Shown one piece after another: positions 10,483 to 50,701 of a DNA stretch of 64,000 nt. The position numbers were made by a program, and so were the translations under genes. The stretch spans positions 78,141 to 142,140 of the forward strand of contig CAJUKS010000004.1 in NCBI GenBank assembly GCA_910587405.1. Reading direction: 5' to 3'. The notes under the pieces are model-generated. The model did not search any database and was not told where the DNA came from. It worked only from the letters and a program-made list of their open reading frames with translations. The DNA comes from an uncultured Alphaproteobacteria bacterium (GTDB lineage: Bacteria > Pseudomonadota > Alphaproteobacteria > RF32 > CAG-239). Each line of letters opens with the position of its first letter. Positions within the stretch are counted from its first letter, which is position 1.

Positions 10483-12573
10483 ATGGACGCCGGAAAACTA
10501 TGGATGTTGCAGGATTTTATAGGAACCAACAAAGTTTTATTCAGAATACCGGTTTATCAGCGAAATTACGATTGGTCCGATGTCAACTGCAACAAACTGC
10601 TGGATGACACCAAACAAATTATCGATACCGGCGAAAAGCATTTTCTCGGAACTTTCGTTTATATGCCGATCGGCGGCGGCTTTTCATTAAAAGAATATAT
10701 CATCATCGACGGTCAACAACGGCTGACGACCATGATGATTTTGCTGAAAGCATTGTCTGACCTCGCTCAGAAAAACGGTGACGGCTGCTATGAGGAAATC
10801 GAGGAAATCTATTTGCACAACCGCCACTGTGAGGAACAATTCAAAATCAAACTGAAACCGGTGAAGTCCGACAACGAACAATTTTTGGCGCTGTTGAAAA
10901 ACAATACCGATGCCTTGGACGAAGAAGGGCACATCTTTATCAATTATGAAATTTGCCGTAAACGCCTCGAAAAATGGATTGCCTCCGGCATCACGCCTTC
11001 AGAAATTCATACGGCGCTGGAGAAACTGGAAATCGTCGAAATCTCCTTCACCAAAGGAGAAGACGATCCCCAGGTGATCTTCGAAAGCATTAATTCCACC
11101 GGACTCGAACTTTCCTGCGCCGACCTCATCAGAAACTTTTTGCTGATGAACGCCGACAAACAGGAGGAACTGTACGAGAAATATTGGCTGTCTATTGAAA
11201 AAGCCCTCAAATCCGGTACCGATTATACCAACCTCAATCTGTTTTTTATGCAATATGTCATTTACAAAACCAGCGCACCGGTAAACTTGGGCTCTTTGTA
11301 TCAAAAGTTTGTAAAATTGTTTAAAGACGGCGGATACACTCAGGAAAGCTGCCTGAAAGAACTGAAGTACCATGCCGACATTTTTCGCGCGTTTGTCTTT
11401 GAGTGCTCCGACTATCCGGCACCGATACGCAAAATTCTGAAAAATCTCCGACAATTGAAGCAAACCACAAGCTATCCGTTTTTAATCCATGTTTTTGACG
11501 ACTACAAACAGGGCACGATCAACGAAGATACGCTGCGCCAAACGTTGGAATTGATCCTTTCTTATTTGGTCCGTCGTTCCGTTTGCGGCATTCCTTCCAA
11601 CTCTTTGCGCGGTTTGTTTATCTATCTCTACAACCGCGTATTTAAAGTGAGCGCCAACAAAAAGAAATATTATCAGGCTATTAACAAATTTCTTTTTACC
11701 ATGACTTCCAAAGACGCCATGCCGTCGACAACCGATTTTGAAAGAGCGCTGAAAACCAACAACTTGTACGGAAACCTCTCCCTATGCAAATTTTTATTGA
11801 TGGAAATTGAAAACGGCAACGGCAAAGAAACTCTCAATACCGAAACTCTGACGATTGAACACATCATGCCGCAGGCCTTGAGCTCCGACTGGAAACATAT
11901 TTCCGACCAAGATCATGAACAGTATCTGCATACGCTGGGAAATTTGTCGGTTTCGGGTTATAATTCGGAACTGTCAAACAAAAGCTTTTCCGAAAAGAAA
12001 AAGATCATTGCCGAAAACTCCAAAGCGGTTATCCTCAACAGCGACGTTCTGAGTAAAGACAGTTGGAATATTGACAGCATTAAAAGCCGTTCCGGCCGCC
12101 TGGCACAAATCCTGATGCAAAAATATGATATCGAACGCGTTACCGACGACAGTATTGAGTTTGATGTTGTCAATACGATTACGCTTAATGATTACAGCGA
12201 CGTTACCGGCAAAAAACTGGTTACTTTCAAATTTGACCGAGAAATCTACCGGCAAAACAAATACGCTCTGATGCTGTTGGAAATGGTACGGATCTTGGAT
12301 CAACGACATCCCGGCATTTTGGAGCAGCTGGCCCGACAGAACTTTTCCCTCAACCCCAGATGCAAACGTTGCTATCTCAGCTGCAAACGCGACAATATGT
12401 GCTCGCCGTACGAAATTGAGCAAAAACCCGGAATTTTCATCGAATTGAATCTGTCATCCCAAAATGTGATGAGCTTCATCGATAAACTGCTGGAACAATA
12501 CGGAGAAGACAAATCGTCTTTTTCGATCAACGTCATCGCCGAAGAAACCGACGATACCGATACCGAGGAATAA
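10483..12573 (+). CDS. DUF262/DUF1524 nuclease (GmrSD / BrxU / SspE-like type IV restriction family)
   Basis: The N-terminal DUF262 has FRIPVYQRNYDW and IIDGQQRLTT, the middle has FESINSTGLELSCADLIRNFLL, and the DUF1524 His-Me finger has TIEHIMPQ..W..LHTLGNLSVSGYNSELSNKSF. It ends 45 nt before cas1 with no terminator between them. Confidence 0.85.
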   Translation: MDAGKLWMLQDFIGTNKVLFRIPVYQRNYDWSDVNCNKLLDDTKQIIDTGEKHFLGTFVYMPIGGGFSLKEYIIIDGQQRLTTMMILLKALSDLAQKNGDGCYEEIEEIYLHNRHCEEQFKIKLKPVKSDNEQFLALLKNNTDALDEEGHIFINYEICRKRLEKWIASGITPSEIHTALEKLEIVEISFTKGEDDPQVIFESINSTGLELSCADLIRNFLLMNADKQEELYEKYWLSIEKALKSGTDYTNLNLFFMQYVIYKTSAPVNLGSLYQKFVKLFKDGGYTQESCLKELKYHADIFRAFVFECSDYPAPIRKILKNLRQLKQTTSYPFLIHVFDDYKQGTINEDTLRQTLELILSYLVRRSVCGIPSNSLRGLFIYLYNRVFKVSANKKKYYQAINKFLFTMTSKDAMPSTTDFERALKTNNLYGNLSLCKFLLMEIENGNGKETLNTETLTIEHIMPQALSSDWKHISDQDHEQYLHTLGNLSVSGYNSELSNKSFSEKKKIIAENSKAVILNSDVLSKDSWNIDSIKSRSGRLAQILMQKYDIERVTDDSIEFDVVNTITLNDYSDVTGKKLVTFKFDREIYRQNKYALMLLEMVRILDQRHPGILEQLARQNFSLNPRCKRCYLSCKRDNMCSPYEIEQKPGIFIELNLSSQNVMSFIDKLLEQYGEDKSSFSINVIAEETDDTDTEE

Positions 12574-12618: not shown

Positions 12619-13557
12619 ATGGATCGACAAATTATCGAAATATCAAACGACGGATTTAACCTTTCGCTCTACCGGGGATTTCTGGTGGTGGAAAACAAAA
12701 ATCAAGGATTAAAGTCCGAAATCCCTTTGGATAATATCTTGGCTTTGATCCTGTCGGCAAACAATGTATCCGTCACCAAAAATATAATCAACGCCATTGC
12801 CGAACAGGGCGGAAATATCATATTCTGCGACAAAAATTACCTTCCGTCAGCTCTCACCACCCCCTATACCGGCCACTGGCTGATCTCCTCACGGGTACGC
12901 CGACAAATAGATTGCTCCAAACCGCTGCAAAAAAATTTGTGGAAAAGCATTGTTCAAAATAAAATCTTTAATCAAGCCAAGATACTGGAATATTTCTTTC
13001 CCCAACATCCGCGCTTGGCCCGGCTCAAGCAACTGGCGCGTGAGACGCTCAGTAACGACGCTAAAAACAATGAAGGTACCGCCGCGGCAATTTATTTCAA
13101 ATCTTTGTTCGGAAAAAACTTTGTTCGAGACCGCTTAGGCAACAATGCCAACATTCTGCTCAACTATACTTATATCGTTTTGCGGGCCATGGTGGCGCGT
13201 TCGATTGCCGGCAACGGATTGTTGCCCTATTTGGGGCTGAAACATTGCACCAAATCAAATCCGCTGCCGTTGGTCGACGATTTAATCGAGCCTTTCCGCG
13301 CCATCGCCGACAAAATCGTGTTTGAACAACTCAATCAACTGGTTAACATCGAACAAATCGAATTGACTCCCGAAATAAAAAGAAACTTAACCAAAATTAT
13401 TACTTTTCCGGTTTTAACCGGCAAGGGATGCGTTTCCCTCAGTGAAGGAATTAATGACTTTGTAAGCAGCTTGGTCACAAGCTTCGAACTCAAAAAAGTG
13501 GTCCTGCAATACCCAACCATCCAATTACAGGAGTTGTCAAAACGGCTTCCTGATTAA
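12619..13557 (+). CDS. cas1: CRISPR-associated endonuclease Cas1, type II-C like
   Basis: 312 aa with motifs NNEGTAAAIYFKSLFG, LNYTYIVLRAMVAR and DLIEPFR, typical of type II Cas1. The stop codon lies inside a degenerate CRISPR repeat. Confidence 0.92.
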   Translation: MDRQIIEISNDGFNLSLYRGFLVVENKNQGLKSEIPLDNILALILSANNVSVTKNIINAIAEQGGNIIFCDKNYLPSALTTPYTGHWLISSRVRRQIDCSKPLQKNLWKSIVQNKIFNQAKILEYFFPQHPRLARLKQLARETLSNDAKNNEGTAAAIYFKSLFGKNFVRDRLGNNANILLNYTYIVLRAMVARSIAGNGLLPYLGLKHCTKSNPLPLVDDLIEPFRAIADKIVFEQLNQLVNIEQIELTPEIKRNLTKIITFPVLTGKGCVSLSEGINDFVSSLVTSFELKKVVLQYPTIQLQELSKRLPD

Positions 13558-14361
13558 GCGGGGATAAAATGACACCATTTGACAGGCCTCATACCAGCTG
13601 GTTATAATTGACTGTCTGATTAATCTCTGATAAAATCCCGTTATCAAAAAAAGCCTTCTGCATCGTGTTATAATTGACCGTCTGATTAATCTCTGATAAA
13701 ATAGCACCTACAACCGGTATATCGGTTCCTTCGTTATAATTGACCGTCTGATTAATCTCTGATAAAATTAATCTCCTGTTATTTCATTAAAACGCTGAGT
13801 TATAATTGACCGTCTGATTAATCTCTGATAAAATCAGCCGCATTACGACCTTTCATCTTTTTTAGTTATAATTGACCGTCTGATTAATCTCTGATAAAAT
13901 CCTTTCTACAAGCCCTTAAAAGGCCCTACAGTTATAATTGACCGTCTGATTAATCTCTGATAAAATGCGTCCGTATTTGCGGTACGTCTGCGTGCTGTTA
14001 TAATTGACCGTCTGATTAATCTCTGATAAAATCTCGCAAAGCATATATTCGTGAGCAGACTGTTATAATTGACCGTCTGATTAATCTCTGATAAAATATA
14101 TTTGTGATGGATTACCACCACCATTTAGTTATAATTGACCGTCTGATTAATCTCTGATAAAATGCTACCGATGCCCGAACCAAGACCACTCATGTTATAA
14201 TTGACCGTCTGATTAATCTCTGATAAAATGACGACTGAAATGTCGACCGTGGCTTTTTTGTTATAATTGACCGTCTGATTAATCTCTGATAAAATAAGTT
14301 CCCTATCTAATTCTAATGTAAAATAGTTATAATTGACCGTCTGATTAATCTCTGATAAAAT
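13535..14361 (+). CRISPR. Type II-C CRISPR array with 13 repeats and 12 spacers. The crRNA sense strand is +.
   Basis: The 36-nt repeat is GTTATAATTGACCGTCTGATTAATCTCTGATAAAAT. Eleven copies are identical (13667-14361). One is a C>T variant (13601-13636). One is degenerate, with 22/36 matches (13535-13570). Spacers are 29-30 nt and all unique. Polarity is inferred from the tracrRNA anti-repeat and from the TGATAAAAT extended -10 at each repeat's 3' end. Confidence 0.97.
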
Positions 14362-14369
14362 CTCTCATT

Positions 14370-14410
14370 AAGTAATGCCTTGAAATAGAACACATTTCAA
14401 GGCATTACTT
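14370..14410. terminator. Bidirectional hairpin between the last repeat and the cas2 stop
   Basis: Perfect 17-bp inverted repeat AAGTAATGCCTTGAAAT / ATTTCAAGGCATTACTT with a 7-nt loop. Confidence 0.6.
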
Positions 14411-14436
14411 GAGAATAAAATCATTAAAAAACCCGG

Positions 14437-14768: not shown

Positions 14769-16634
14769 TTAAAGTTTCAAGTCGCTGCCGCCCTTGGCTT
14801 GCGGAATGATGTGCTCAATCTCAACACCGATAAACCTATGATCAATGCTCAGGGTCGGATTGTAAGCGTCTTTCCTGCCTTGCTCTTTGGCCAGTTTGTA
14901 TTTTAAAATATTTTTATTGTTAACATACAATTTATGCTGCTGCAGATACATCCTCGCTTCGTCATTGAGCTTTTCATTCAAACGCTGCCTTTGTTCCAGT
15001 TCAGTTTTCTTCTTTGCCGACAAACCGATATCACGGCCCAACTCAATGTTAATATCATAAGGGCGTCCGTAAATGCGGATAATATCGTTAACCACCAACC
15101 GGATTTGATTGAGAATCATGTGAACGGCCGGGTTGGCAATCTTACCCCATTTAACTTCGTCTTTATCCAAACCGGGATTGTTTTTAATCAGCAACGGCGG
15201 CAACGGCTGAGTATCATTTTGCAAAATTTCGCCGTAATACGGAAGTTGCAGATATTTTCCCTGCTTTGCCCGCACCACTTCTTCTTCCGCCAAAAACCGC
15301 GGATCGGTCTTTGCCAGCGCATCGGTGACTTCGCGATGAGACAGCACGTTTTGCTTCATTTGCTCCAAAATCAGTTTGGAGGCCGTTTGTCCAAGCATCC
15401 CTCTTCCTTTGGGAAGTTTGGTTAAAAGCGCACCGATTTCTTTTTCATCGTCAATTTTGAAAATAGGTTTGAGGTGCTCAATTAAAGCGTCCTCACTGTA
15501 CAAACGCCCGTTTTTGTCGTCCGGATTTTTGGGTTCGGCCAAAAAGTCGACAAAGGTCGCCAACTCCTTTTCCGACAAATTTTTCAGATATTCTATGTCG
15601 GCAAATTCCGGCCGCGCATATAAATAGGCTTTGATCACCCGGTCGTCCAACAAAGAAATTTTCTGTTGTGCCGAAAGACCCAAGGTCTTCTTAATCGACT
15701 GTTTTCCGGCATTTATACCTTTCAATAAAAGCTCATTGACAATTTTGTCACGCTCTTCCAGGCTCAAACGGCGTTTATCGGTATCGCTGATCACCCGGAC
15801 ATTGTTAACTTCTTCGTATATCCGCCGCATTTCTGCAAGCGGGTGCGCTTTTAACAGGCGTTCTTCTTCTCTGAAATAAATACATTTTCCGGTCGCATAA
15901 GGCATCGGCGGCCGTTCATAAAACAAAATGTCGTAAATTTCTTTTTTGAGGCCGTCCTTTTGCATCTGTTTAAAATATTGGGCCTGCCGATCCCATATTT
16001 GGTTAAACTCGTCTTTCACCAGATAACGGGGAATCGCATAATCGACGATATTTTTTTCCAAAGCGTATTTTCTTTGCCGGATAATCCGATTTTGCGGATT
16101 TTCTTTTTCTTGGAGACGCTGATAAAAAAAGGCGCCGATCGTTTTTGAACCGGTATCTTTCAAATATTGTACCATCCGGTCATATGAAGATTTCTTAATC
16201 TTAGATTTTTCGCCTTCTTCCAGAACTTCTTCCGACAACTCCTCCGCCGCCGAAACAAAACCGGCGCCGCGATGCTTGGCCATATGCAAGATCGCCCGAC
16301 CGATGTAATTTTGATTTTCCAACTTGCCGTACAGGGCATCATGACGAATTTTATAAGGAGACTTTGCTTTCAATCGGTCGGTTCCTTCCGGGGTTTCGTT
16401 CACCCACAGATTGTTTTCAAAAAGCTTTTTGGCCAACAATTCCAACCTTTTACGCGTACGAACCAAATTTTTGCGTGCTGTTTTTTTAAGGCGCCGTTCT
16501 TCTGCCCCTTCCGAAATTTCAAAAATACGTACCCCGCCGTCAATAATATCTTTAGCAAGGTTGTTCTGATCCAGTTCAATCAAGCCGCTTCCGATTGAAC
16601 TCTCTCCCAAATCAAGATTAAGACGATACTTCAT
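14769..16634 (-). CDS. cas9: Cas9 N-terminal fragment of 621 aa. It has RuvC-I, bridge helix, REC, RuvC-II and the first HNH strand only. It is truncated relative to all known Cas9 and is probably a pseudogene.
   Basis: Motifs present are LNLDLGESSIGSG (RuvC-I), RRLKKTARKNLVRTRKRLE (Arg-rich helix), INIELGRD (RuvC-II) and VEIEHIIPQAKGGSD (HNH His), followed by LKL-stop. Nothing is encoded before the cas2 ATG, 12 nt downstream, for the rest of HNH, RuvC-III or the PAM-interacting domain. Confidence 0.85.
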   Translation of the reverse strand: MKYRLNLDLGESSIGSGLIELDQNNLAKDIIDGGVRIFEISEGAEERRLKKTARKNLVRTRKRLELLAKKLFENNLWVNETPEGTDRLKAKSPYKIRHDALYGKLENQNYIGRAILHMAKHRGAGFVSAAEELSEEVLEEGEKSKIKKSSYDRMVQYLKDTGSKTIGAFFYQRLQEKENPQNRIIRQRKYALEKNIVDYAIPRYLVKDEFNQIWDRQAQYFKQMQKDGLKKEIYDILFYERPPMPYATGKCIYFREEERLLKAHPLAEMRRIYEEVNNVRVISDTDKRRLSLEERDKIVNELLLKGINAGKQSIKKTLGLSAQQKISLLDDRVIKAYLYARPEFADIEYLKNLSEKELATFVDFLAEPKNPDDKNGRLYSEDALIEHLKPIFKIDDEKEIGALLTKLPKGRGMLGQTASKLILEQMKQNVLSHREVTDALAKTDPRFLAEEEVVRAKQGKYLQLPYYGEILQNDTQPLPPLLIKNNPGLDKDEVKWGKIANPAVHMILNQIRLVVNDIIRIYGRPYDINIELGRDIGLSAKKKTELEQRQRLNEKLNDEARMYLQQHKLYVNNKNILKYKLAKEQGRKDAYNPTLSIDHRFIGVEIEHIIPQAKGGSDLKL

Positions 16635-35801: not shown

Positions 35802-36053
35802 TTACAAACCCCGTCTTCGATCCTCTTCAATTTGCTTGAATATTTCCGCCAACGAAACACCGATCGCATCTGCAATCATAATTAAAGTCATTAATTGCGG
35901 GGTTTGCTTAAAATCTTTAATATACGACAACGTGCTTTCGCTCAAACCGGTTTTCTTGGCGATTTGATAATTAGTCATACGGACGGCTTTCTGCTTTTCA
36001 ATTAAGGCAGAAATAACTTTGTCACTGATTATTTTGGCATCACGTTTATTCAT
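35802..36053 (-). CDS. XRE-family HTH protein, short paralog of 83 aa without the C-terminal extension
   Basis: NYQIAKKTGLSESTLSYIKDFKQTPQLMTLIMIADAIG. Last gene of a 4-gene HTH operon. Confidence 0.75.
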   Translation of the reverse strand: MNKRDAKIISDKVISALIEKQKAVRMTNYQIAKKTGLSESTLSYIKDFKQTPQLMTLIMIADAIGVSLAEIFKQIEEDRRRGL

Positions 36054-36105
36054 AAATTTACAATAAAACACATTGAGAAATTTATCAACTAATAACAATA
36101 GATTT

Positions 36106-36348
36106 CTATTTATACATTTTCCACAACGTGTCCAAAATTTCGCCGGGATGTTTGTTCAAGGCCTGCATGATGTCCAAATATTCGGTAATGTCAACCCGTC
36201 TTTCGCCGCTTTCGTTTTTGTAAACATAGGATTGAGGCTTGTTTAATCTGCGAGCAAGTTCGGTCTGTGTCAGGCCGGCGTCTTCGCGCGCCCGGCGCAG
36301 CAACTTGCGGAAATGAATGTACTCGGGGGTATAGAGAGACTGGGTCAT
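36106..36348 (-). CDS. XRE-family HTH protein (classic Cro/CI-type, 80 aa)
   Basis: AREDAGLTQTELARRLNKPQSYVYKNESGERRVDITEYLDIMQAL. Confidence 0.8.
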   Translation of the reverse strand: MTQSLYTPEYIHFRKLLRRAREDAGLTQTELARRLNKPQSYVYKNESGERRVDITEYLDIMQALNKHPGEILDTLWKMYK

Positions 36349-36390
36349 AAAATTTTTCCTAAACACATTGCCCAAACAAACGAAACGATA

Positions 36391-36762
36391 TCATTCTTCC
36401 GCAATATCGGCAAGGATTTTATAAGCCAGTTTCAGTTGCCGGGGAGAAAGCTTTTTAAGTTTGTGAAGGGCAGTGTAAAAAAGAGGATCTTTACCTAACA
36501 ACTCATTCTCGACCAACGCCGATTTCGGATAAGGATAATGTTGATACAACGCTTGCGGCAGGTCAAACTCTGTTGCGGCCGACAAACGGATCATCATTGA
36601 AAAGGTTGGATTCTGTTCAAAATTTTCAATTTTTGAGATCGAACTTTTACTGACGTCGGCTAACAAAGACAGGCGATAAGGCGTAATCTTTTTTAACTCG
36701 CAATGTTCTTTAAAAGCAAGGATGACGTTGTTGACAACGCTATGAGTTTCTCGTGTTTTCAT
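36391..36762 (-). CDS. XRE-family HTH protein with a ~45-aa C-terminal helical extension (paralog family)
   Basis: YRLSLLADVSKSSISKIENFEQNPTFSMMIRL, then LLGKDPLFYTALHKLKKLSPRQLKLAYKILADI. Confidence 0.8.
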   Translation of the reverse strand: MKTRETHSVVNNVILAFKEHCELKKITPYRLSLLADVSKSSISKIENFEQNPTFSMMIRLSAATEFDLPQALYQHYPYPKSALVENELLGKDPLFYTALHKLKKLSPRQLKLAYKILADIAEE

Positions 36763-36799
36763 ATTTTAACGACAAAAGATTTTTATTTTACAGTTGATT

Positions 36800-37168
36800 T
36801 TACTTCTTTCGGTTGACGAGTGTCAAAATAAGATCATGCGCAATTCTCAAGTCGTCTTCACTCAGCCTTTGCAAATTTTCAATCGTAACGTCAAAAAGCG
36901 GCGAACGCCCCAATAGTTCCATCGTCTGAGAATCTTTTCTCTCCGGATAGCTTTGCGCCACGATATCCGGGAAATAACATCCCAGATAGTCAGCTATGAT
37001 AGCCAAGGTCATAAAAGAAGGATTTTGTTTCAAACACTCAATCTTGGAGATGGAGCTTTCACTCATGCCGGTACCCTTAGCCAACTTGTATTGGCTAAGA
37101 TCACCTCGTGCTTCCCGCAGTTTGAGCACGATTTTATTGGTTATACTTTTTGCTTGTCGTTTATTCAT
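36800..37168 (-). CDS. XRE-family HTH protein with a C-terminal helical extension (paralog family)
   Basis: YKLAKGTGMSESSISKIECLKQNPSFMTLAIIADYL, then LLGRSPLFDVTIENLQRLSEDDLRIAHDLILTLV. Confidence 0.8.
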   Translation of the reverse strand: MNKRQAKSITNKIVLKLREARGDLSQYKLAKGTGMSESSISKIECLKQNPSFMTLAIIADYLGCYFPDIVAQSYPERKDSQTMELLGRSPLFDVTIENLQRLSEDDLRIAHDLILTLVNRKK

Positions 37169-37188
37169 AATACATAATATAAAATCAT

Positions 37189-37217
37189 TTGACTTTAACT
37201 TTATAACACTCTATGAT
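37189..37217 (+). promoter_or_regulatory. Sigma70 promoter driving structured RNA copy A and the small ORF, divergent from the HTH operon
   Basis: TTGACT, a 17-nt spacer, then TATGAT. The equivalent TTGACT-N16-TATACT is present upstream of copy B. Confidence 0.65.
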
Positions 37218-37223
37218 CCTAGA

Positions 37224-37548
37224 TAGTAGGTTAATATCTATAGCCATAATATTATTCTGACGCAATACCTGTTGCAGCAGGTATCCTAAGGGCTAGAGAT
37301 AGTCCGGATGAAGTGATGTTCATCTGAATTTAAACTCGTGCAGCATGTCGATGTAAATGCTGTGACTCGGCTATTGACTCTTTGAACAATAACTGAGATT
37401 ATATCCCCGGTCTTCGACTATCGGCCGGGGAGCCCTTCGGGCTTGCCTGAAGGATGCCATTTCACGAGTTATGGTAACATCACCTCCCCGGCCACCTTAT
37501 TTCCCGCCCTTGATTTTTGGTTTTCACTTTTTCACAACGAGGGCTGCT
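37224..37548 (+). ncRNA. Conserved structured RNA / long 5' leader, copy A (conserved core 37266-37496)
   Basis: The ~230-nt core is alignable to 49580-49805. At least three stems keep their pairing while the loops differ, and one base pair covaries. No coding potential. It ends at the SD of the small ORF. Confidence 0.65.
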
Positions 37549-37737
37549 ATGCTTCATCATCTTTTAAATAAAATTCTGCCGCAACAATCAAACATATCCC
37601 GCGAGTCCGATGACATCGACGAACCGATCCGCGGCATCCGGGAGCTTGAAACCTTTCTGGCAAATCAGAGCGAAGAAACCCGACAGGCCATTCATAAGGT
37701 CATTTCCTTTATTCTCTACCGCACCCCTTTGCAATAG
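37549..37737 (+). CDS. 62-aa protein, paralog of the ORF at 49853-50047, resembling the C-terminal extension of the neighbouring XRE paralogs
   Basis: GAGGGC SD 5 nt before the ATG. MLHHLLNK..DEPIRGIRELETFLANQSEETRQAIHKVISFIL compares with ..DEPIRNLKEFEAFVFSQSEETQRALGKIIAFIL. Confidence 0.65.
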   Translation: MLHHLLNKILPQQSNISRESDDIDEPIRGIRELETFLANQSEETRQAIHKVISFILYRTPLQ

Positions 37738-38438: not shown

Positions 38439-38780
38439 ATGCGCAGATTTTGGACATTTTTGCTGGCCGCCGCTTTTATCTTCGCCGCGTTTTCCGCTCA
38501 GGCGGGAGTACGGTTCATCACCGATGTGCCGCAAAACACCGTTCAGGGAAAACTGCCGTCGGCCTATGCCAAATCCAAAGGCAAACGTGACTGTCAATCC
38601 GCCGGTTACAACAAAACCTCCTGCAGCGAAGACGAATATCTGGTCAAACGTTGTCCTTATGACGGACGCTATTACAAAGCCTGTTGCGACAAAGAATATT
38701 CTCACTCCAAATCGTTTTGTTTGAGCCGCGGCAAAAAGCCCAGCCGCAGATCCTGCGAAGGACTTTATGCCTGCGAATAA
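38439..38780 (+). CDS. Secreted Cys-rich small protein (113 aa)
   Basis: Signal peptide MRRFWTFLLAAAFIFAAFSAQA, 10 Cys in the mature part, and the motif CPYDGRYYKACCDKEYS shared with the next large gene. A terminator lies at about 38797-38826. Confidence 0.7.
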   Translation: MRRFWTFLLAAAFIFAAFSAQAGVRFITDVPQNTVQGKLPSAYAKSKGKRDCQSAGYNKTSCSEDEYLVKRCPYDGRYYKACCDKEYSHSKSFCLSRGKKPSRRSCEGLYACE

Positions 38781-39133: not shown

Positions 39134-41371
39134 ATGAAAATATCGGGTAAAATTTGGGCGGTGTGCATGCTGTTGGCCTGCGGCTGCCTTTGGAGTGCCG
39201 GCAACGTTTCGGCCAAGGTTTGTTTCGTCGGCGATCCCGACTGTGCCGGCGGCGCCGACTTCGGCGAGTATGTTGATCCGGCGGCAGACGGCGAACTTTG
39301 CAAAAAGGAAGGCTATATTCTTAAAGCAGACTGCGAAGCCAACCCGGCCAAACATGTCACAGGCTATTGTCCGTACAACGCCAACTATGTCATGTGCTGC
39401 GGCAAAGAATACTCCTACGATTTGTGTTTATATCCGTTGGTTTCCGACGGCAAATGCGGCAACCGGCATAAATGTGTCTGCGATTCAAAGTTTCCTTTCA
39501 ACGACAACTACAATGACACTTCGTGCAAACTCAAATATCCCGGCAGCGTTGCCGACGGCGGTTCTTGCGTTCAGACGACTTACAATGCCGCCAACAATTC
39601 CGGCAAAACCGATATCTATTTCTCGGAATGCATCTGCAACCCGGCCTCTTATCCGTTTTTGCGCGAAGACTGCACCAACGGAACCGAACCTTCGGACGAC
39701 GGATGTACCGGCACCGACCGGATCACCCGCTATTCGTCTTGTATCTGCAACCGCGAAAAATATCAATTTGCCGCCGGCGACTGCGAATTCGGAGGCAACC
39801 TCGACAAGAAGGAATATTATTGTATCCAGGGCGGTTCGTATTTCTTTACCCAATGCTACAATTGCGATGCCTTTCCGGCGACTTCGCTTGATCATGTCAA
39901 GGGCGGCGAAGGTGTCGGCTACAAAAAATGCACTTACGGCAACCGCTATCAGATCTTGCAATGCGAAGCCGGATACCGTCCCGGCAAAGACGGCGATAAC
40001 TGCCGGGAACTGACCTGTGAAGAGGCCGTCGACGAATGGCTGACCACCTATCCGGAACAAAAAGCAAGATACACCCTGCTCGCAAGTCCGCAAAATATTC
40101 AGGACAGCAAACTGGTTAACGCAACCAGCAACGCTTCCAACATCAAGACTCAGAACGTGATTCTGGCAGACAATCAACAACTTTCCAAAATCTATGCCGG
40201 CATCAATTACTACGGCGCCAGCGCCTTTGGAAAACTGCGGGGCGGTTATATGGCCGAACGCTGCAAAACCCGTCCGAACATTGTTTACACCTCAAGCAAC
40301 AACGGTTTCTGGATTCCGTCTCATTCACCGTTCGGCTGGAGTTCGTCCACCAAAGGAAAAGTCAAGTTATACGGCTTAAAGCTCGATATGAGCAAATTTA
40401 ACGGAACTTTCCAGACCTCGTACGGAATTGATGCCACCAACATCGATATCACGGCCCGAAACTGGACGATCCCGGCAACCGTCGACTATGCGCCGCGCTT
40501 TGTTTACGACAAAAGTTACGATAACGAAGGCTACGAGGCGATGCCGACAATCAACATCACCGGCACTTTGACCATCCAAAGCAAAGCAACCTTTGACGGT
40601 GTATCGTTTAACAAAGAAGACGCCTATGCCGGCCGCGGCTACATGGATATCCAGGTTCCGGCTTCTTATAAGAGACAAACGATGGTTACTTTCGGCTTCA
40701 AAGAAGATCAGGAATTCAAAATCGGTTCAGTTTATATGTATCCGAAAGACGTCGGGGTATGTAATTTCCAAAATTCAGGTAACTGTCTGACCGATTATAA
40801 CACGACAATATCATTCACCGGTCCTAGTTCGGAAAACCCGGCCAACGTTTACACCAGCATATATCTCGGTTACGGATATCAGGGCGGAACGAAAATTGCC
40901 CATAACATGATTGCCAAACTGTCGGGGGCGTTGGTTTGGAATATGTATAAAGGGGGCGGAAACTACAACATTACGCTTTCTCCCGGAAGCAAAATATACT
41001 CGACCGATTACGGTTCCGGCGAATATGCCCGCATTAAACGCGGCAGCGATTCAAAATGGGGCTGGTGTCGGATGTCTTCCACTTACCGCGTCGTCAGATA
41101 CGGAAAACACAGCGGCTGCTTGTTCAGCAACTGTTGCGGAGACTGCAAATTCCGTACCGATAAAGGCGACGATTATGTTGAAAACTATTCCATGGTTTGT
41201 TCCGTCAACAAATCTGCCTCCAAATCTTACATTGCCGGCATGAGCTTAACCAGTTCGTCTAACTGCAAATGCGGAAATCAGCGTCCGAATCAAAGTCAAC
41301 TCAACCGATGTATTGTTGATTTCGGCGGACATACCCATGTCCTCATGAATTGCGGTGACAGCAAACTGTAA
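39134..41371 (+). CDS. Large secreted or lipoprotein Cys-rich protein (745 aa)
   Basis: Signal with a possible lipobox, MLLAC. The N-terminal ~300 aa carry repeated Cys modules (CPYNANYVMCCGKEYS; ECICNPASYPFLREDC; SCICNREKYQFAAGDC). There is a second Cys cluster at the C-terminus. RBS AAAGGGGAAGGG. Confidence 0.75.
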   Translation: MKISGKIWAVCMLLACGCLWSAGNVSAKVCFVGDPDCAGGADFGEYVDPAADGELCKKEGYILKADCEANPAKHVTGYCPYNANYVMCCGKEYSYDLCLYPLVSDGKCGNRHKCVCDSKFPFNDNYNDTSCKLKYPGSVADGGSCVQTTYNAANNSGKTDIYFSECICNPASYPFLREDCTNGTEPSDDGCTGTDRITRYSSCICNREKYQFAAGDCEFGGNLDKKEYYCIQGGSYFFTQCYNCDAFPATSLDHVKGGEGVGYKKCTYGNRYQILQCEAGYRPGKDGDNCRELTCEEAVDEWLTTYPEQKARYTLLASPQNIQDSKLVNATSNASNIKTQNVILADNQQLSKIYAGINYYGASAFGKLRGGYMAERCKTRPNIVYTSSNNGFWIPSHSPFGWSSSTKGKVKLYGLKLDMSKFNGTFQTSYGIDATNIDITARNWTIPATVDYAPRFVYDKSYDNEGYEAMPTINITGTLTIQSKATFDGVSFNKEDAYAGRGYMDIQVPASYKRQTMVTFGFKEDQEFKIGSVYMYPKDVGVCNFQNSGNCLTDYNTTISFTGPSSENPANVYTSIYLGYGYQGGTKIAHNMIAKLSGALVWNMYKGGGNYNITLSPGSKIYSTDYGSGEYARIKRGSDSKWGWCRMSSTYRVVRYGKHSGCLFSNCCGDCKFRTDKGDDYVENYSMVCSVNKSASKSYIAGMSLTSSSNCKCGNQRPNQSQLNRCIVDFGGHTHVLMNCGDSKL

Positions 41372-48300: not shown

Positions 48301-48448
48301 AAGGCGGCATCAATTGCCGGTTGTATCACAAAATACGACTCTACTTATAGTATACAAACTGAGAATTAAAATGCTTGCCGGGCCGATTCGTTTTTCGCCG
48401 CGGCAAAAAGACATAGAAAAACCCGCCGCAGCGGGGAAAATTGTTCTT

Positions 48449-48823
48449 TTATTCTTCGTTAAGGGCGCGCACCATTTTATAAATAAAGCGCAACTTTTTT
48501 TCATTCACCTTTTTAAGACCTTCCAACACCAACTGAAAAGTCGGCGAAAGCGTCAGTGTTTCATCTTCTATTTGATTGGCAGAATCGGGAAAATTATCCT
48601 TAAGCGCTTGCGGCAGATCAAAATTGAGACTGATCGCCATTTCAATGAGAGTACTCAAAGTTGGGTTTTGCTTTAGATCCTCTATTTTTGCAATCGAACT
48701 TTCACTGAGGCCGGTATCGTGTGCCAATCTGTAACGACTCACTTTCTGTTTTATCCTTTCTTTCTTCATCGCAAGGACTATTTGATTAACCCGGCTCTGA
48801 TTCTTTCTTTTATTGACTAACAT
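48449..48823 (-). CDS. XRE-family HTH protein with a C-terminal helical extension (paralog family)
   Basis: YRLAHDTGLSESSIAKIEDLKQNPTLSTLIEMAISL, then LTLSPTFQLVLEGLKKVNEKKLRFIYKMVRAL. It has its own terminator at about 48415-48445. Confidence 0.8.
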   Translation of the reverse strand: MLVNKRKNQSRVNQIVLAMKKERIKQKVSRYRLAHDTGLSESSIAKIEDLKQNPTLSTLIEMAISLNFDLPQALKDNFPDSANQIEDETLTLSPTFQLVLEGLKKVNEKKLRFIYKMVRALNEE

Positions 48824-49041
48824 ATTTGACTCAATTATAGGTTGCTTATTTTTGATGATATTATATTAGAAAAATATATTTAAAACTAAATTAAGTTTTA
48901 CAGCATCCCTTCAAAAAAGACGGAGTTTTATCAACATTATTGTGACGACACGGCAAGACACCCGATTCGCCGACTTATTTTACCGATTCGTTTTTCGTCC
49001 CACTGAAAAGATACAAAAAAACCCGCTGAAGCGGGATTTTT

Positions 49042-49422
49042 TTAACGACCGTTGAGCGCTCTTGCCACTTTGTAAATCACTTGCAGCGTTTCCTCATCCA
49101 TCTGTTTAAGACATTCGACCACCAAATGGAAAGTCGGCGACAGCGTCAGCAACTCTTCCTCACCTTCTCTTTCATCAGCGGTGTCCGGAAAGTTTTCCTT
49201 AAGTGCCTGCGGCAGATCAAAATTGAGACTGATCGCCATTTCAATGATCGTACTCAAAGTCGGATTTTGTCTTAACTCTTCAATATTTGCAATTGAACTG
49301 TCACTTAATCCGATATCTCGGGCTAATTTGTACCTAGTAATCTTTTTACTTATTCTTGCTTTTTTCATCTCAAGAATAATCTGATTAACTCGTCCCTGAT
49401 TCTTTCTTTTGTTTACTAACAT
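49042..49422 (-). CDS. XRE-family HTH protein with a C-terminal helical extension. Close paralog of 48449-48823.
   Basis: YKLARDIGLSDSSIANIEELRQNPTLSTIIEMAISL, then LTLSPTFHLVVECLKQMDEETLQVIYKVARAL. Terminator at about 49015-49040. Confidence 0.8.
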   Translation of the reverse strand: MLVNKRKNQGRVNQIILEMKKARISKKITRYKLARDIGLSDSSIANIEELRQNPTLSTIIEMAISLNFDLPQALKENFPDTADEREGEEELLTLSPTFHLVVECLKQMDEETLQVIYKVARALNGR

Positions 49423-49511
49423 TGATAGCCTAAAACTAAATTATTAAAGCTTATTTATTGAAATATATAAATTAGCTTGACTTTGCACAATAGTTTTATA
49501 TACTTCAATAG

Positions 49512-49852
49512 TAGTATAGAGAAATACAGTCGCAACAATGATTTTGCAAGTAAGCCTCATTCATTATTATTTTAAACCATACCTATCAAACAGGTATCCG
49601 TAGGGCTAGAGATAGTCCGGACGAATTAGCATTCGTCTGTTAGCACTTGTGCAGCATGGGATATAAATGCTGTAACTCAGTTATTGACTCTTCATAAAAT
49701 AACTGAGATTATATCCCCGGTCACTGACTATCGGCCGGGGAGCCCTCTGGTTCGTCCCGAGGATGCCATTTCACAAGTGATGGTAATGCTAACTCCCCGG
49801 CCACCTTTTCTTTCAGCCCCGACTTTAACTTTATTTTTGCATGAGGGCAGTC
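49512..49852 (+). ncRNA. Conserved structured RNA / long 5' leader, copy B (conserved core about 49580-49805)
   Basis: Promoter TTGACT-N16-TATACT at about 49478-49505. The core aligns with 37266-37496. Coordinates here are +/-1 nt. Confidence 0.65.
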
Positions 49853-50047
49853 ATGGGCCAACCGATTTCCAACCAAAACAAAACAACCGTTTCCACCACT
49901 TCGGGTCGCGAACCAAACGATCTAAACGACGAACCGATCCGCAACCTTAAGGAGTTTGAAGCTTTTGTATTCAGCCAAAGCGAGGAAACCCAGCGCGCCT
50001 TGGGCAAGATTATCGCTTTTATCTTGCACTGCGCCAGGGAACAATAG
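49853..50047 (+). CDS. 64-aa protein, paralog of the ORF at 37549-37737
   Basis: GAGGGC SD before the second ATG of the track ORF 49841-50047. MGQPISNQ..LNDEPIRNLKEFEAFVFSQSEETQRALGKIIAFILHCAREQ. Confidence 0.65.
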   Translation: MGQPISNQNKTTVSTTSGREPNDLNDEPIRNLKEFEAFVFSQSEETQRALGKIIAFILHCAREQ

Positions 50048-50056
50048 TCAACATCA

Positions 50057-50259
50057 CTCTTGACTATTAAGCAATTTACTGAGATGATACCCCCGGTCAC
50101 TGACTATCGGCCGGGGAGCCTCTGCTTTGTCCTGAGGATGCCATTTCTTGTGTAATGGTAACGCTAACTCTCCGGCCGCCTTTTTCGGCCCGGGGAGCCT
50201 CTGCTTTGTCCTGAGGATGCCATTTTTTGTGTAATGGTAACATCACCTCCTCGGCCGCC
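50057..50259 (+). repeat. Two further partial tandem copies of the 3' module of the structured RNA
   Basis: 50057-50180 and 50186-50259 both repeat ..CCCCGG..GGCCGGGGAGCC..CCTGAGGATGCCATTT..TAATGGTAAC..C(T/C)CGGCCGCC. Confidence 0.7.
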
Positions 50260-50701
50260 TTTTTCGGCCCCGTTTCTCAGTCTTTTGCCGACGATCTCCC
50301 GCTTCCCGGATAATTTCCGCTGCGGGATGTTTTCTTTCGATCTGCGGGACGCACCGCTTTCAACTCTCTTTTTCAACCCCGATTTCGGCCGGTTTTTCTC
50401 CGATTCCCGGACCGGCTCTCGCTGCGCTTTTTATCGCAGTCAACCGCTCGCGCCGGCCGCAAAAACGCCGCGCTGCCTTTGCCTTCCAAAAACAAAAGCG
50501 CCCGATTGACAGGACACTCAGAACACCTTATAAAGAAAAAACCCGGTGCAGGAACACCGGGTTTTCAGTAACCTCTGAAAGAAGTTGACGTGTAACTTCA
50601 ATCAACATGGTTACAGTATAAGCTTAATTTTATAATTTGTCAATGACAACTGATAGATAAGCTTGTCAGCTTCTTTCATACAAACGAAAGGAGTGACGGC
50701 A

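Follow-up and report, generated by a model that had tools for sequence, protein, structure and literature searches.

A leader RNA of XRE regulator cassettes in gut Alphaproteobacteria that combines a C4-like module with a co-varying upstream target domain

We characterized a structured RNA encoded in a 64,000-nt stretch of DNA from an uncultured alphaproteobacterium (GenBank assembly GCA_910587405.1, contig CAJUKS010000004.1, positions 78,141 to 142,140; the whole stretch is called the window here). The RNA is present in two copies, A (37265-37496) and B (49580-49805), which are members of a previously uncurated RNA family of gut Rhodospirillales. The original prediction, made from the letters of the window, had placed both copies in the leaders of paralogous small genes, which is borne out, and had described one homogeneous 230-nt fold of unknown class. 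We found instead a two-part unit, in which a 5′ target domain is followed by a 3′ module resembling the C4 antisense RNA of phages P1 and P7. Two stretches of the module are complementary to two sites of the target domain and change together with them. Each unit is probably a C4/CI-type self-targeting antisense switch, with an upstream-only target, within a cassette of XRE-family helix-turn-helix (HTH) regulator genes.

Two long-range pairings co-vary between target domain and module

The target domain contains the hairpins S1, S1b, S2, S3, and S4, and the module contains the hairpins H1 and H2 and a single-stranded joining strand, J (Table 1). J is complementary to the apical loop of S2 (site 1); the H2 loop has its complement in a single-stranded site that lies just 3′ of S2 (site 2). 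Copy A has GUGAUGU/ACAUCAC at site 1 (S2 loop/J) and AACUCGUG/CACGAGUU at site 2 (site/H2 loop); copy B has UUAGCAU/AUGCUAA and CACUUGUG/CACAAGUG. A metagenome-assembled genome (MAG) of a mouse-gut alphaproteobacterium holds both window units, as L007 (97% identity to A) and L002 (95% identity to B). L007 carries UUCGCGU/ACGCGAA at site 1 and the sequences of A at site 2, and L002 carries UUAGCGU/ACGCUAA and GCUCAAG/CUUGAGC. These orthologues differ from the window almost only at the interacting positions, always on both sides, and all four loci stay complementary at both sites. The loops, initially thought to be unrelated between A and B, are recognition sites whose partners, 150 nt away, change with them.

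Further relatives were sought by a pattern scan of one genome per species and with a 19-mer from the 5′ half of the RNA. The scan yielded more distant copies in a human-gut MAG (L008 and L010), and the 19-mer retrieved 46 gut-metagenome loci plus 13 loci that belong to ~10 gut Rhodospirillales species, Candidatus Scatocola among them. Approximately 20 distinct two-site codes were found, with at least seven distinct matched codes at site 1 and at least eight at site 2. The helix between the S2 loop and J was predicted by RNAalifold unprompted, and six of its seven pairs have changed on both sides. The pairing of site 2 with the H2 loop was scored by per-sequence duplex counts instead of alignment columns because MAFFT shifts the register between subtypes, which makes column counting impossible. 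With pairing of at least 6 and 7 bp required at the two sites, 11 of the 15 cis combinations observed in the metagenome set were paired, compared with only 6 of the 129 combinations that were not in cis. Among the GTDB species genomes, each of the 11 complete units was matched, most of them with new codes, as were both units of L129, a MAG in which two diverged units stand in tandem. When the entire window was scanned on both strands, the best non-self hit of modules A and B was in each case the 5′ site of the same unit.

Paralogous units carry different codes in the window, in L129, and in Ca. Scatocola, whereas L018 and L020, different loci of apparently one genome (one sample; coverage of ~140×), have the same two-site code.

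The target domain is a conserved RNA fold

Copies A and B align from end to end, as had been proposed, at a mean column identity of 81% rather than the roughly three-quarters estimated at that time. The four stems listed in the original prediction were all found in the sequence, including the T-A to C-G swap in stem 2 of copy B, where a G·U pair is also kept. Folding was more stable than in shuffled controls for both regions (z = −3.8 for A and −3.95 for B), and more than 60 related loci support the four stems by compensatory changes, confirming a real, conserved, structured noncoding RNA with covariation. A 45-pair structure that we specified ourselves was evaluated on 20 diverged relatives against 500 shuffles. 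In this structure, 95.8% of cells were paired, compared with 86.9% in the shuffles, none of which scored as high, and 34 to 44% in slid controls. The covariation score was 0.360 versus 0.189, and 18 of the 45 pairs showed changes on both sides. RNAalifold recovered S1, S3, S4, and the hairpin GGGCUA-GAGA-UAGUCC (S1b) from the same 20 sequences. One pair of S1 is split evenly between CG and UA among the relatives (10:10). The double changes in S4 include G·U pairs, and S4 is therefore an RNA stem.

The segment AGGGCTAGAGATAGTCC, taken earlier for an invariant single strand, probably forms the GAGA-loop hairpin S1b. Besides the RNAalifold prediction, this is suggested by L212, in which GGGCUA/UAGCCC amounts to a G·U to G-C change; the corresponding arms in one L129 unit are GGAC/GUCC. 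The invariance of the segment across the relatives is partly a sampling effect, as the relatives were retrieved with that very 19-mer. Parts of the RNA, such as this GNRA hairpin, may bind protein. A pairing of GAUAGUC in the invariant 5′ segment with GACUAUC in the leader of the module, which appears in the minimum free energy (MFE) fold of B, was rejected because diverged subtypes lack GACUAUC.

The 3′ module occurs four times in the window

The 3′-terminal 75 to 80 nt are more numerous than the two copies recognized at first: a repeat scan of the window gave four, namely, modules A and B and the tandem orphans C and D. All four fold into a 10-bp closing stem (GGCCGGGGAG/CUCCCCGGCC), H1, H2 with a 10-nt loop, a J strand of 7 to 8 nt, and a 3′ RCC tail. 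Across 37 distinct module sequences, 93.1% of the cells were paired, compared with 86.0% after shuffling, and 16 of 23 pairs had changed on both sides; the alignment was fitted to the model, and these values hence lean toward it. The acceptor-like stem starting with GG and the RCC tail are features compatible with maturation of the 5′ end by RNase P from a longer precursor.

The orphans lack a 5′ target domain of their own, and the J code of D is identical to that of A. A target pair matching an orphan code would be, for example, UUAGCGU with UACACAAG. No target of C or D stood above background in the window, and partial, G·U-rich matches of the orphan codes to alleles of other species were not conclusive. 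The number of orphans (one or two) and their loop codes vary between near-identical strains while the stems are kept; this diversification of loops on constant stems argues for action in trans. Orphans lie downstream of the small gene of unit B in the window (50109-50259) and also occur in L002 (4840-5000), L008 (7269-7352), and L017 (1522-1603).

A competing helix and two output elements

A conserved linker, CCCCGG, precedes the module, and RNAalifold predicts that it pairs with the closing stem's 5′ arm. The linker and the arm change together: CCCGA always occurs with arm GGUCGGGG and CCCCGG always occurs with GGCCGGGG (73 instances, no exceptions), and at least three lineages show the CCCGA/GGUCGGGG combination. 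The 3′ arm of the closing stem retains a G opposite the U in L220 and L221. This covariation suggests that two mutually exclusive helices are under selection, as expected if the RNA is a switch or follows a guided path of folding.

An intrinsic terminator (CCACCUU..AAGGUGG with a run of five U residues) directly abuts the RCC tail in most subtypes and is followed by a Shine-Dalgarno (SD) sequence and an XRE-family HTH gene of 82 to 165 amino acids (aa). The window subtype has no intrinsic terminator after the module, and in its place is a hairpin that sequesters the SD sequence; L212 has GCCCCC/GGGGGC at this position. The small proteins encoded downstream in the window (62 to 64 aa) had no family hit in Pfam, PHROGs, or PADLOC. 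Their homologues form only five clusters among the 5.8 billion proteins searched, and small-gene homology was dropped as a route to more relatives for that reason.

We also searched for second targets downstream of the module. Near the SD sequence, no consistent Watson-Crick match of at least 8 nt that would resemble the a2/b2 sites of P1 was found, with only background lengths present; a 7-nt ACGAAAA match near the SD sequence of one subtype does not co-vary. A second site downstream of the module like seqC of P4 was not found.

Relationship to C4 and other known RNAs

Neither copy reaches the threshold of any Rfam family, a check that the original prediction had called for. At gathering scores, Rfam 15 gave no family near A or B, and its only hits in the window are two tRNAs. 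At permissive thresholds, applied to the window, each copy, the isolated modules, and two diverged relatives, only C4 appeared, below threshold. The C4 hits on modules B and C are full-length alignments and the best hits.

The annotated P1 record shows, in order, the operator and promoters, a1 (TTGACAG), b1 (GTTAGTG), c4 (77 nt), a2/b2, icd (73 aa), and ant. The elements of the P1 C4 fold are a closing stem, the hairpins H1 and H2 (the latter with loop UUCACUAAC), the J strand CUGUCAA, and a tail of ACC; J pairs with the 5′-most target a (UUGACAG), and the H2 loop CACUAAC pairs with the 3′ target b (GUUAGUG). The modules described here share with C4 of P1/P7 a size of ~75 to 77 nt, the closing stem, two hairpins, a single-stranded J, a 3′ ACC tail, and recognition by the H2 loop and J. 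The antiparallel order is also the same, with J directed to the 5′ site and the H2 loop to the 3′ site. As with a1/b1 in P1, the target sites are upstream in the same transcript, and a small open reading frame (ORF) follows; the upstream promoter in P1 is repressor controlled, and specificity shifts by a few compensated bases, as between P1 and P7 (PMC5320573). In contrast to P1, the closing stem has 10 rather than 17 bp, the upstream sites are embedded in a domain with four to five hairpins and a conserved structure, the module is followed by an intrinsic terminator or SD hairpin in the absence of a2/b2 at the ribosome-binding site, and the downstream gene encodes an XRE regulator or a 62- to 64-aa protein instead of icd-ant. 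Furthermore, the setting is chromosomal and without phage genes, whereas C4 of P1/P7 belongs to the phage immI region. The architecture and the two-site recognition are therefore those of C4, whereas the model score, the downstream a2/b2 target, and the phage immunity context are not, which is why we do not file the RNA under RF01695: it works like a C4/CI system without being a member of that family.

The CA RNA of phage N15 is a processed leader RNA with an upstream complementary sequence in the same transcript and controls termination. Similarly, the processed leader RNA CI of P4 pairs with the upstream seqA of its own transcript and controls premature termination (PMC4825925). By description, both resemble the units studied here in having the complementary target upstream in the same leader, and the P4-type combination of an upstream target and a terminator after the RNA is found in most subtypes, the window subtype being without the terminator. 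P4 differs in its additional downstream seqC, in its single recognition stretch (seqB, where two stretches are present here), and in being a mobile element that controls replication genes; this comparison is one of descriptions. IsrK/STnc1160 from the Gifsy-1 prophage of Salmonella combines a 5′ small RNA (sRNA)-like domain and terminator, a processed stable complementary RNA, a small ORF, and a regulator gene and works by switching the leader's conformation (PMC4825925). The order of a 5′ domain, a complementary RNA, a small ORF, and a regulator gene is shared, but IsrK activates orf45-anrP translation and resides in a prophage, and neither 5′ domain had an Rfam hit to IsrK/SeqA RNA (RF01394) at E values of up to 10. 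Acinetobacter baumannii chromosomes harbor many C4-type copies with variable recognition loops, processed from longer transcripts (PMC5320573). These resemble our modules in being chromosomal and in their variable loops, but they reach the Rfam C4 model, and neither a cis-encoded co-varying target domain nor XRE cassettes are reported for them.

The riboswitch suggested in the original prediction is not supported as a sensor of metabolites. No Rfam riboswitch class was hit, variability is highest in the unpaired stretches, which co-vary with each other, and nothing indicates a small-molecule riboswitch; a hypervariable, co-varying recognition code speaks for RNA-RNA specificity. A type III toxin-antitoxin system of the ToxIN type is not indicated either, as the downstream proteins are XRE HTH proteins or family-less 62- to 64-aa proteins and not ToxN/AbiQ.

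Proposed mechanism and its alternatives

In the mechanism that we propose, a sigma-70 promoter divergent from the XRE repressor gene would produce a leader of ~250 to 300 nt. The ~75 nt at its 3′ end fold into the module, whose closing stem is tRNA-acceptor-like and which further has two hairpins, a single-stranded J, and an RCC tail; J and the H2 loop, as the covariation shows, base-pair with the S2 apical loop and the single-stranded site after S2, respectively. By analogy with P1 C4, P4 CI, and N15 CA, RNase P may release the module at the 5′ end of the closing stem, with the 3′ end at or near the terminator, and the module may then accumulate as a stable small RNA. This RNA would bind the 5′ domain of newly made leaders in trans. 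Binding, together with the competition between CCCCGG and the other strand of the closing stem for its 5′ arm, would decide whether RNA polymerase or ribosomes proceed, acting on the terminator in most members and on the SD-sequestering hairpin in the window copies. Presumably, the downstream regulator gene would in this way come under negative feedback that is specific to the allele ("immunity"), with different codes insulating paralogous units such as A and B from each other.

Several observations weigh against this mechanism. Target and module always occur in cis, so that a purely intramolecular fold gives the same covariation, and release of the module and its action in trans are steps that we infer by analogy. 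In five metagenomic contigs (L025, L039, L041, L052, and L055), the 5′ domain and the module do not match. Four of these contigs combine halves that are matched elsewhere, and the contigs may be chimeras, assembled across the ~40 nt of identical sequence in the center, or genuine recombinants, in which case cross-regulation in trans would be implied. The region from module to SD sequence is unchanged when J changes, and no a2/b2-like target is present at the ribosome-binding site. As for the kinship with C4, the Rfam model (RF01695) gives only 18.2 bits for module B and 20.0 bits for module C, with a gathering score of 45, and no hit for modules A and D or units L129 and L014. Conversely, our module covariance model finds P1 c4 at the right coordinates but with only 12.1 bits (E of ~0.09) and with H2 misaligned.

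The constant presence of both partners on one transcript is what would be expected if the leader acted purely in cis, with double kissing contacts within the ~230-nt RNA sensing a ligand, an XRE protein, or the small protein and switching the terminator or the SD hairpin like a riboswitch or a protein-binding leader. A conserved core with two expression platforms is typical of riboswitch-like leaders, and the GNRA hairpin and the co-varying alternative helix also fit. We nevertheless consider this explanation rather unlikely: strains that are otherwise identical in this RNA differ at four of the seven J nucleotides and at the partners of these, and ~20 codes circulate, a pattern expected for specificity determinants and not for neutral drift of a tertiary contact. 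In addition, orphan modules without a 5′ domain keep their stems and diversify their loops, and no conserved unpaired pocket is evident outside the recognition sites. Specificity in trans is favored, although not proved, by the orphans and by the way in which changes between strains cluster in the recognition nucleotides. Little credence attaches to the idea of two sRNA genes, a SeqA/IsrK-like 5′ domain and a module transcribed from its own promoter inside S4, forming an sRNA/anti-sRNA pair. It can appeal to promoter-like sites ahead of modules A, B, and C (37374-37402, 49684-49712, and 50060-50088), the first of which (TTGACT-17-GATTAT) has an upstream TG, and to the IsrK/STnc1160 and SeqA/CI precedents (PMC4825925). 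The S4-overlapping site is confined to the window subtype, though, and in diverged subtypes the −35 and −10 hexamers are poor, whereas S4 pairing is conserved with G·U pairs and double changes; module D has no such promoter, and no terminator separates S4 from the module.

The flanking of every unit by XRE genes and the resemblance of S1 (ATACCTG-N6-CAGGTAT) and S4 to operators of HTH dimers could mean that the inverted repeats are DNA operators for the neighboring XRE repressors. This is very improbable, as S2, S3, S4, and the closing stem retain or gain G·U pairs, and the many changes that create or remove such pairs favor RNA stems over operators. The arm sequences vary freely provided that pairing is maintained, the repeats lie 40 to 200 nt downstream of the promoter, and the long-range complementarities have no rationale at the DNA level. 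That the region is translated, or is a decaying repeat without function, is hardly credible at all. An ATG inside H2 opens ORFs at 37471-37737 and 50234-50509, both beginning MVTSPPRPP, but A and B do not share this frame. In B, the corresponding frame is not that of the small gene, which marks the ORF at 37471-37737, starting inside module A, as an artifact and upholds the noncoding status originally assigned. Indels between subtypes are not multiples of three, substitutions are pairwise compensatory, and the element is conserved in ~10 species.

If the proposed antisense switch is correct, the principle known from P1, P4, and N15, in which a processed leader RNA silences its own operon by allele-specific pairing, would extend beyond phages of Gammaproteobacteria to stable chromosomal regulator cassettes of uncultured gut Alphaproteobacteria. 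The ~20 orthogonal two-site codes on a constant scaffold are also an unusually clean natural data set for the evolution of RNA-RNA specificity and could perhaps be tapped for orthogonal synthetic regulators. Rfam 15 does not contain the RNA, which could be curated as a new family that includes the target domain. More speculatively, the cassettes could be domesticated chromosomal RNA "immunity barcodes" or a combinatorial, orthogonal RNA wiring for XRE regulators, which we regard as distinctly doubtful. Were the barcode idea true, conflict with phages or elements using C4-like logic would maintain the diversity of at least ~20 two-site codes, orphans C and D would be trans-acting antisense RNAs against non-self alleles, and repressor-plus-antisense units would form an innate RNA-guided layer of exclusion or defense.

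Genomic setting and distribution

Near-consensus sigma-70 promoters are predicted ahead of both copies, as the original prediction had it, and that of unit A points away from the XRE gene (Table 1). Every unit is divergent from another XRE gene.

Table 1 Positions of the features of units A and B and of the orphan modules in the window
Feature	Positions	Strand	Details
Predicted sigma-70 promoter, unit A	37189-37217	+	TTGACT-17-TATGAT; 10/12 consensus matches, pattern match
S1 hairpin, 5′ target domain A	37265-37284	+	ATACCTG 37265-37271 / CAGGTAT 37278-37284, read from sequence; 3/7 pairs changed on both sides
S1b hairpin	37290-37305	+	GGGCUA-GAGA-UAGUCC, GNRA-type loop; RNAalifold prediction
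S2 hairpin	37305-37326	+	CGGATGAA 37305-37312 / TTCATCTG 37319-37326, read from sequence; loop GUGAUGU(U) 37313-37320 is target site 1, complementary to J
Target site 2	37333-37340	+	AACUCGUG, single-stranded; complementary to H2 loop
S3 hairpin	37341-37362	+	CAGCAT 37341-37346 / ATGCTG 37357-37362, read from sequence; 100% paired; 3/6 pairs changed on both sides
S4 hairpin	37366-37397	+	37366-37376 / 37387-37397, read from sequence; 5/9 pairs changed on both sides, G·U pairs present
Linker	37403-37410	+	AUCCCCGG; predicted pairing with 5′ arm of closing stem, excluding that stem
Module A	37423-37496	+	Closing stem 37423-37432 / 37484-37493; H1 37434-37453; H2 37456-37475
Module A recognition parts		+	H2 loop CACGAGUU 37463-37470; J AACAUCAC 37476-37483; tail ACC 37494-37496
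SD-sequestering hairpin, window subtype	37506-37544	+	GCCCU...AGGGC; MFE fold
Small gene A	37549-37737	+	62-aa acidic protein; paralogue of gene B
Divergent XRE-family HTH gene, unit A	36800-37168	−	HTH_3, E = 1.4e-10; CapH-like over full length
Predicted sigma-70 promoter, unit B	49477-49504	+	TTGACT-16-TATACT; 10/12 consensus matches, pattern match
5′ target domain B	49580-49732	+	Site 1 UUAGCAU 49626-49632 in S2 loop; site 2 CACUUGUG 49644-49651
Module B	49733-49805	+	H2 loop CACAAGUG 49772-49779; J AAUGCUAA 49785-49792
Small gene B	49853-50047	+	64 aa; true start 7 nt after SD GAGGG; homologues also 64 aa
Divergent XRE-family HTH gene, unit B	49042-49422	−	Tandem paralogue at 48449-48823
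Orphan module C	50109-50180	+	Loop CUUGUGUA, J ACGCUAA; without own 5′ target domain; 87.2 bits
Orphan module D	50187-50259	+	Loop UUUGUGUA, J ACAUCAC; in tandem with C

Four XRE HTH genes stand in a row before unit A (35802-37168), and a 600-bp tandem duplication of a gene and its terminator (78 to 79% identity) precedes unit B (48383-49422). The window XRE members of 122 to 126 aa resemble CapH, the repressor of cyclic oligonucleotide-based antiphage signaling systems (CBASS), over their full length; no CapP gene was identified near the XRE arrays, although no search aimed at CapP was made.

The covariance model of the module exposed a diverged unit convergent to the main cassette in L030 (9916-10017, minus strand), and the same unit is found at the same position in L012, L015, L019, L021, L032, L039, and L219. 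Its hairpin-loop site CUGAGA faces J UCUCAG, and its single-stranded site AUCUGUAG faces the H2 loop CUACAGAU; its H1 is long, and it also has a terminator and an XRE gene of 82 aa. As this unit keeps the same pairings, the logic appears to be conserved beyond sequence. Compared with L023, the loci L045, L046, L050, and L214 contain a deletion derivative, in which the 5′ domain up to S3 is fused to the 3′ end of a 165-aa XRE gene, and the module and most of the XRE gene are gone.

Housekeeping genes neighbor the units (ldh, tolB, and ruvX in the window; dnaN-recF and rsmI-yraN/rlmN in relatives), with no phage genes nearby. IMG/VR and plasmid searches gave no match. A looser pattern (TATCCCCGG-N8-26-GGCCGGGGA) returned mostly chance matches in genomes and viral contigs, with nhmmer confirming only L129. 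The sole phage-database match was MT837687 (L212), a 6.4-kb scaffold labeled "UNVERIFIED: Bacteriophage sp." that carries a cysteine-rich secreted protein of 805 aa, an HTH gene pair, and the cassette. Its synteny with the window chromosome indicates cellular DNA, and a phage origin was therefore rejected; MT837687 is most likely bacterial DNA from a virome preparation. The window encodes cysteine-rich secreted proteins at 38439-38780 (113 aa; no Pfam hit) and 39134-41371 (745 aa), the latter with a homologue adjoining the cassette in L212.

Elsewhere in the window is a CRISPR array (13591-14361), with 12 repeats of 36 nt (GTTATAATTGACCGTCTGATTAATCTCTGATAAAAT) and 30-nt spacers. One flank carries a Cas1 gene (12619-13557) and a GmrSD gene (10483-12573). 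The other flank carries a minus-strand ORF of 621 aa (14769-16634) with a weak hit to the recognition (REC) lobe of Cas9; this ORF may encode a type II effector that is compact or truncated. Next to the array is a hairpin (14362-14420).

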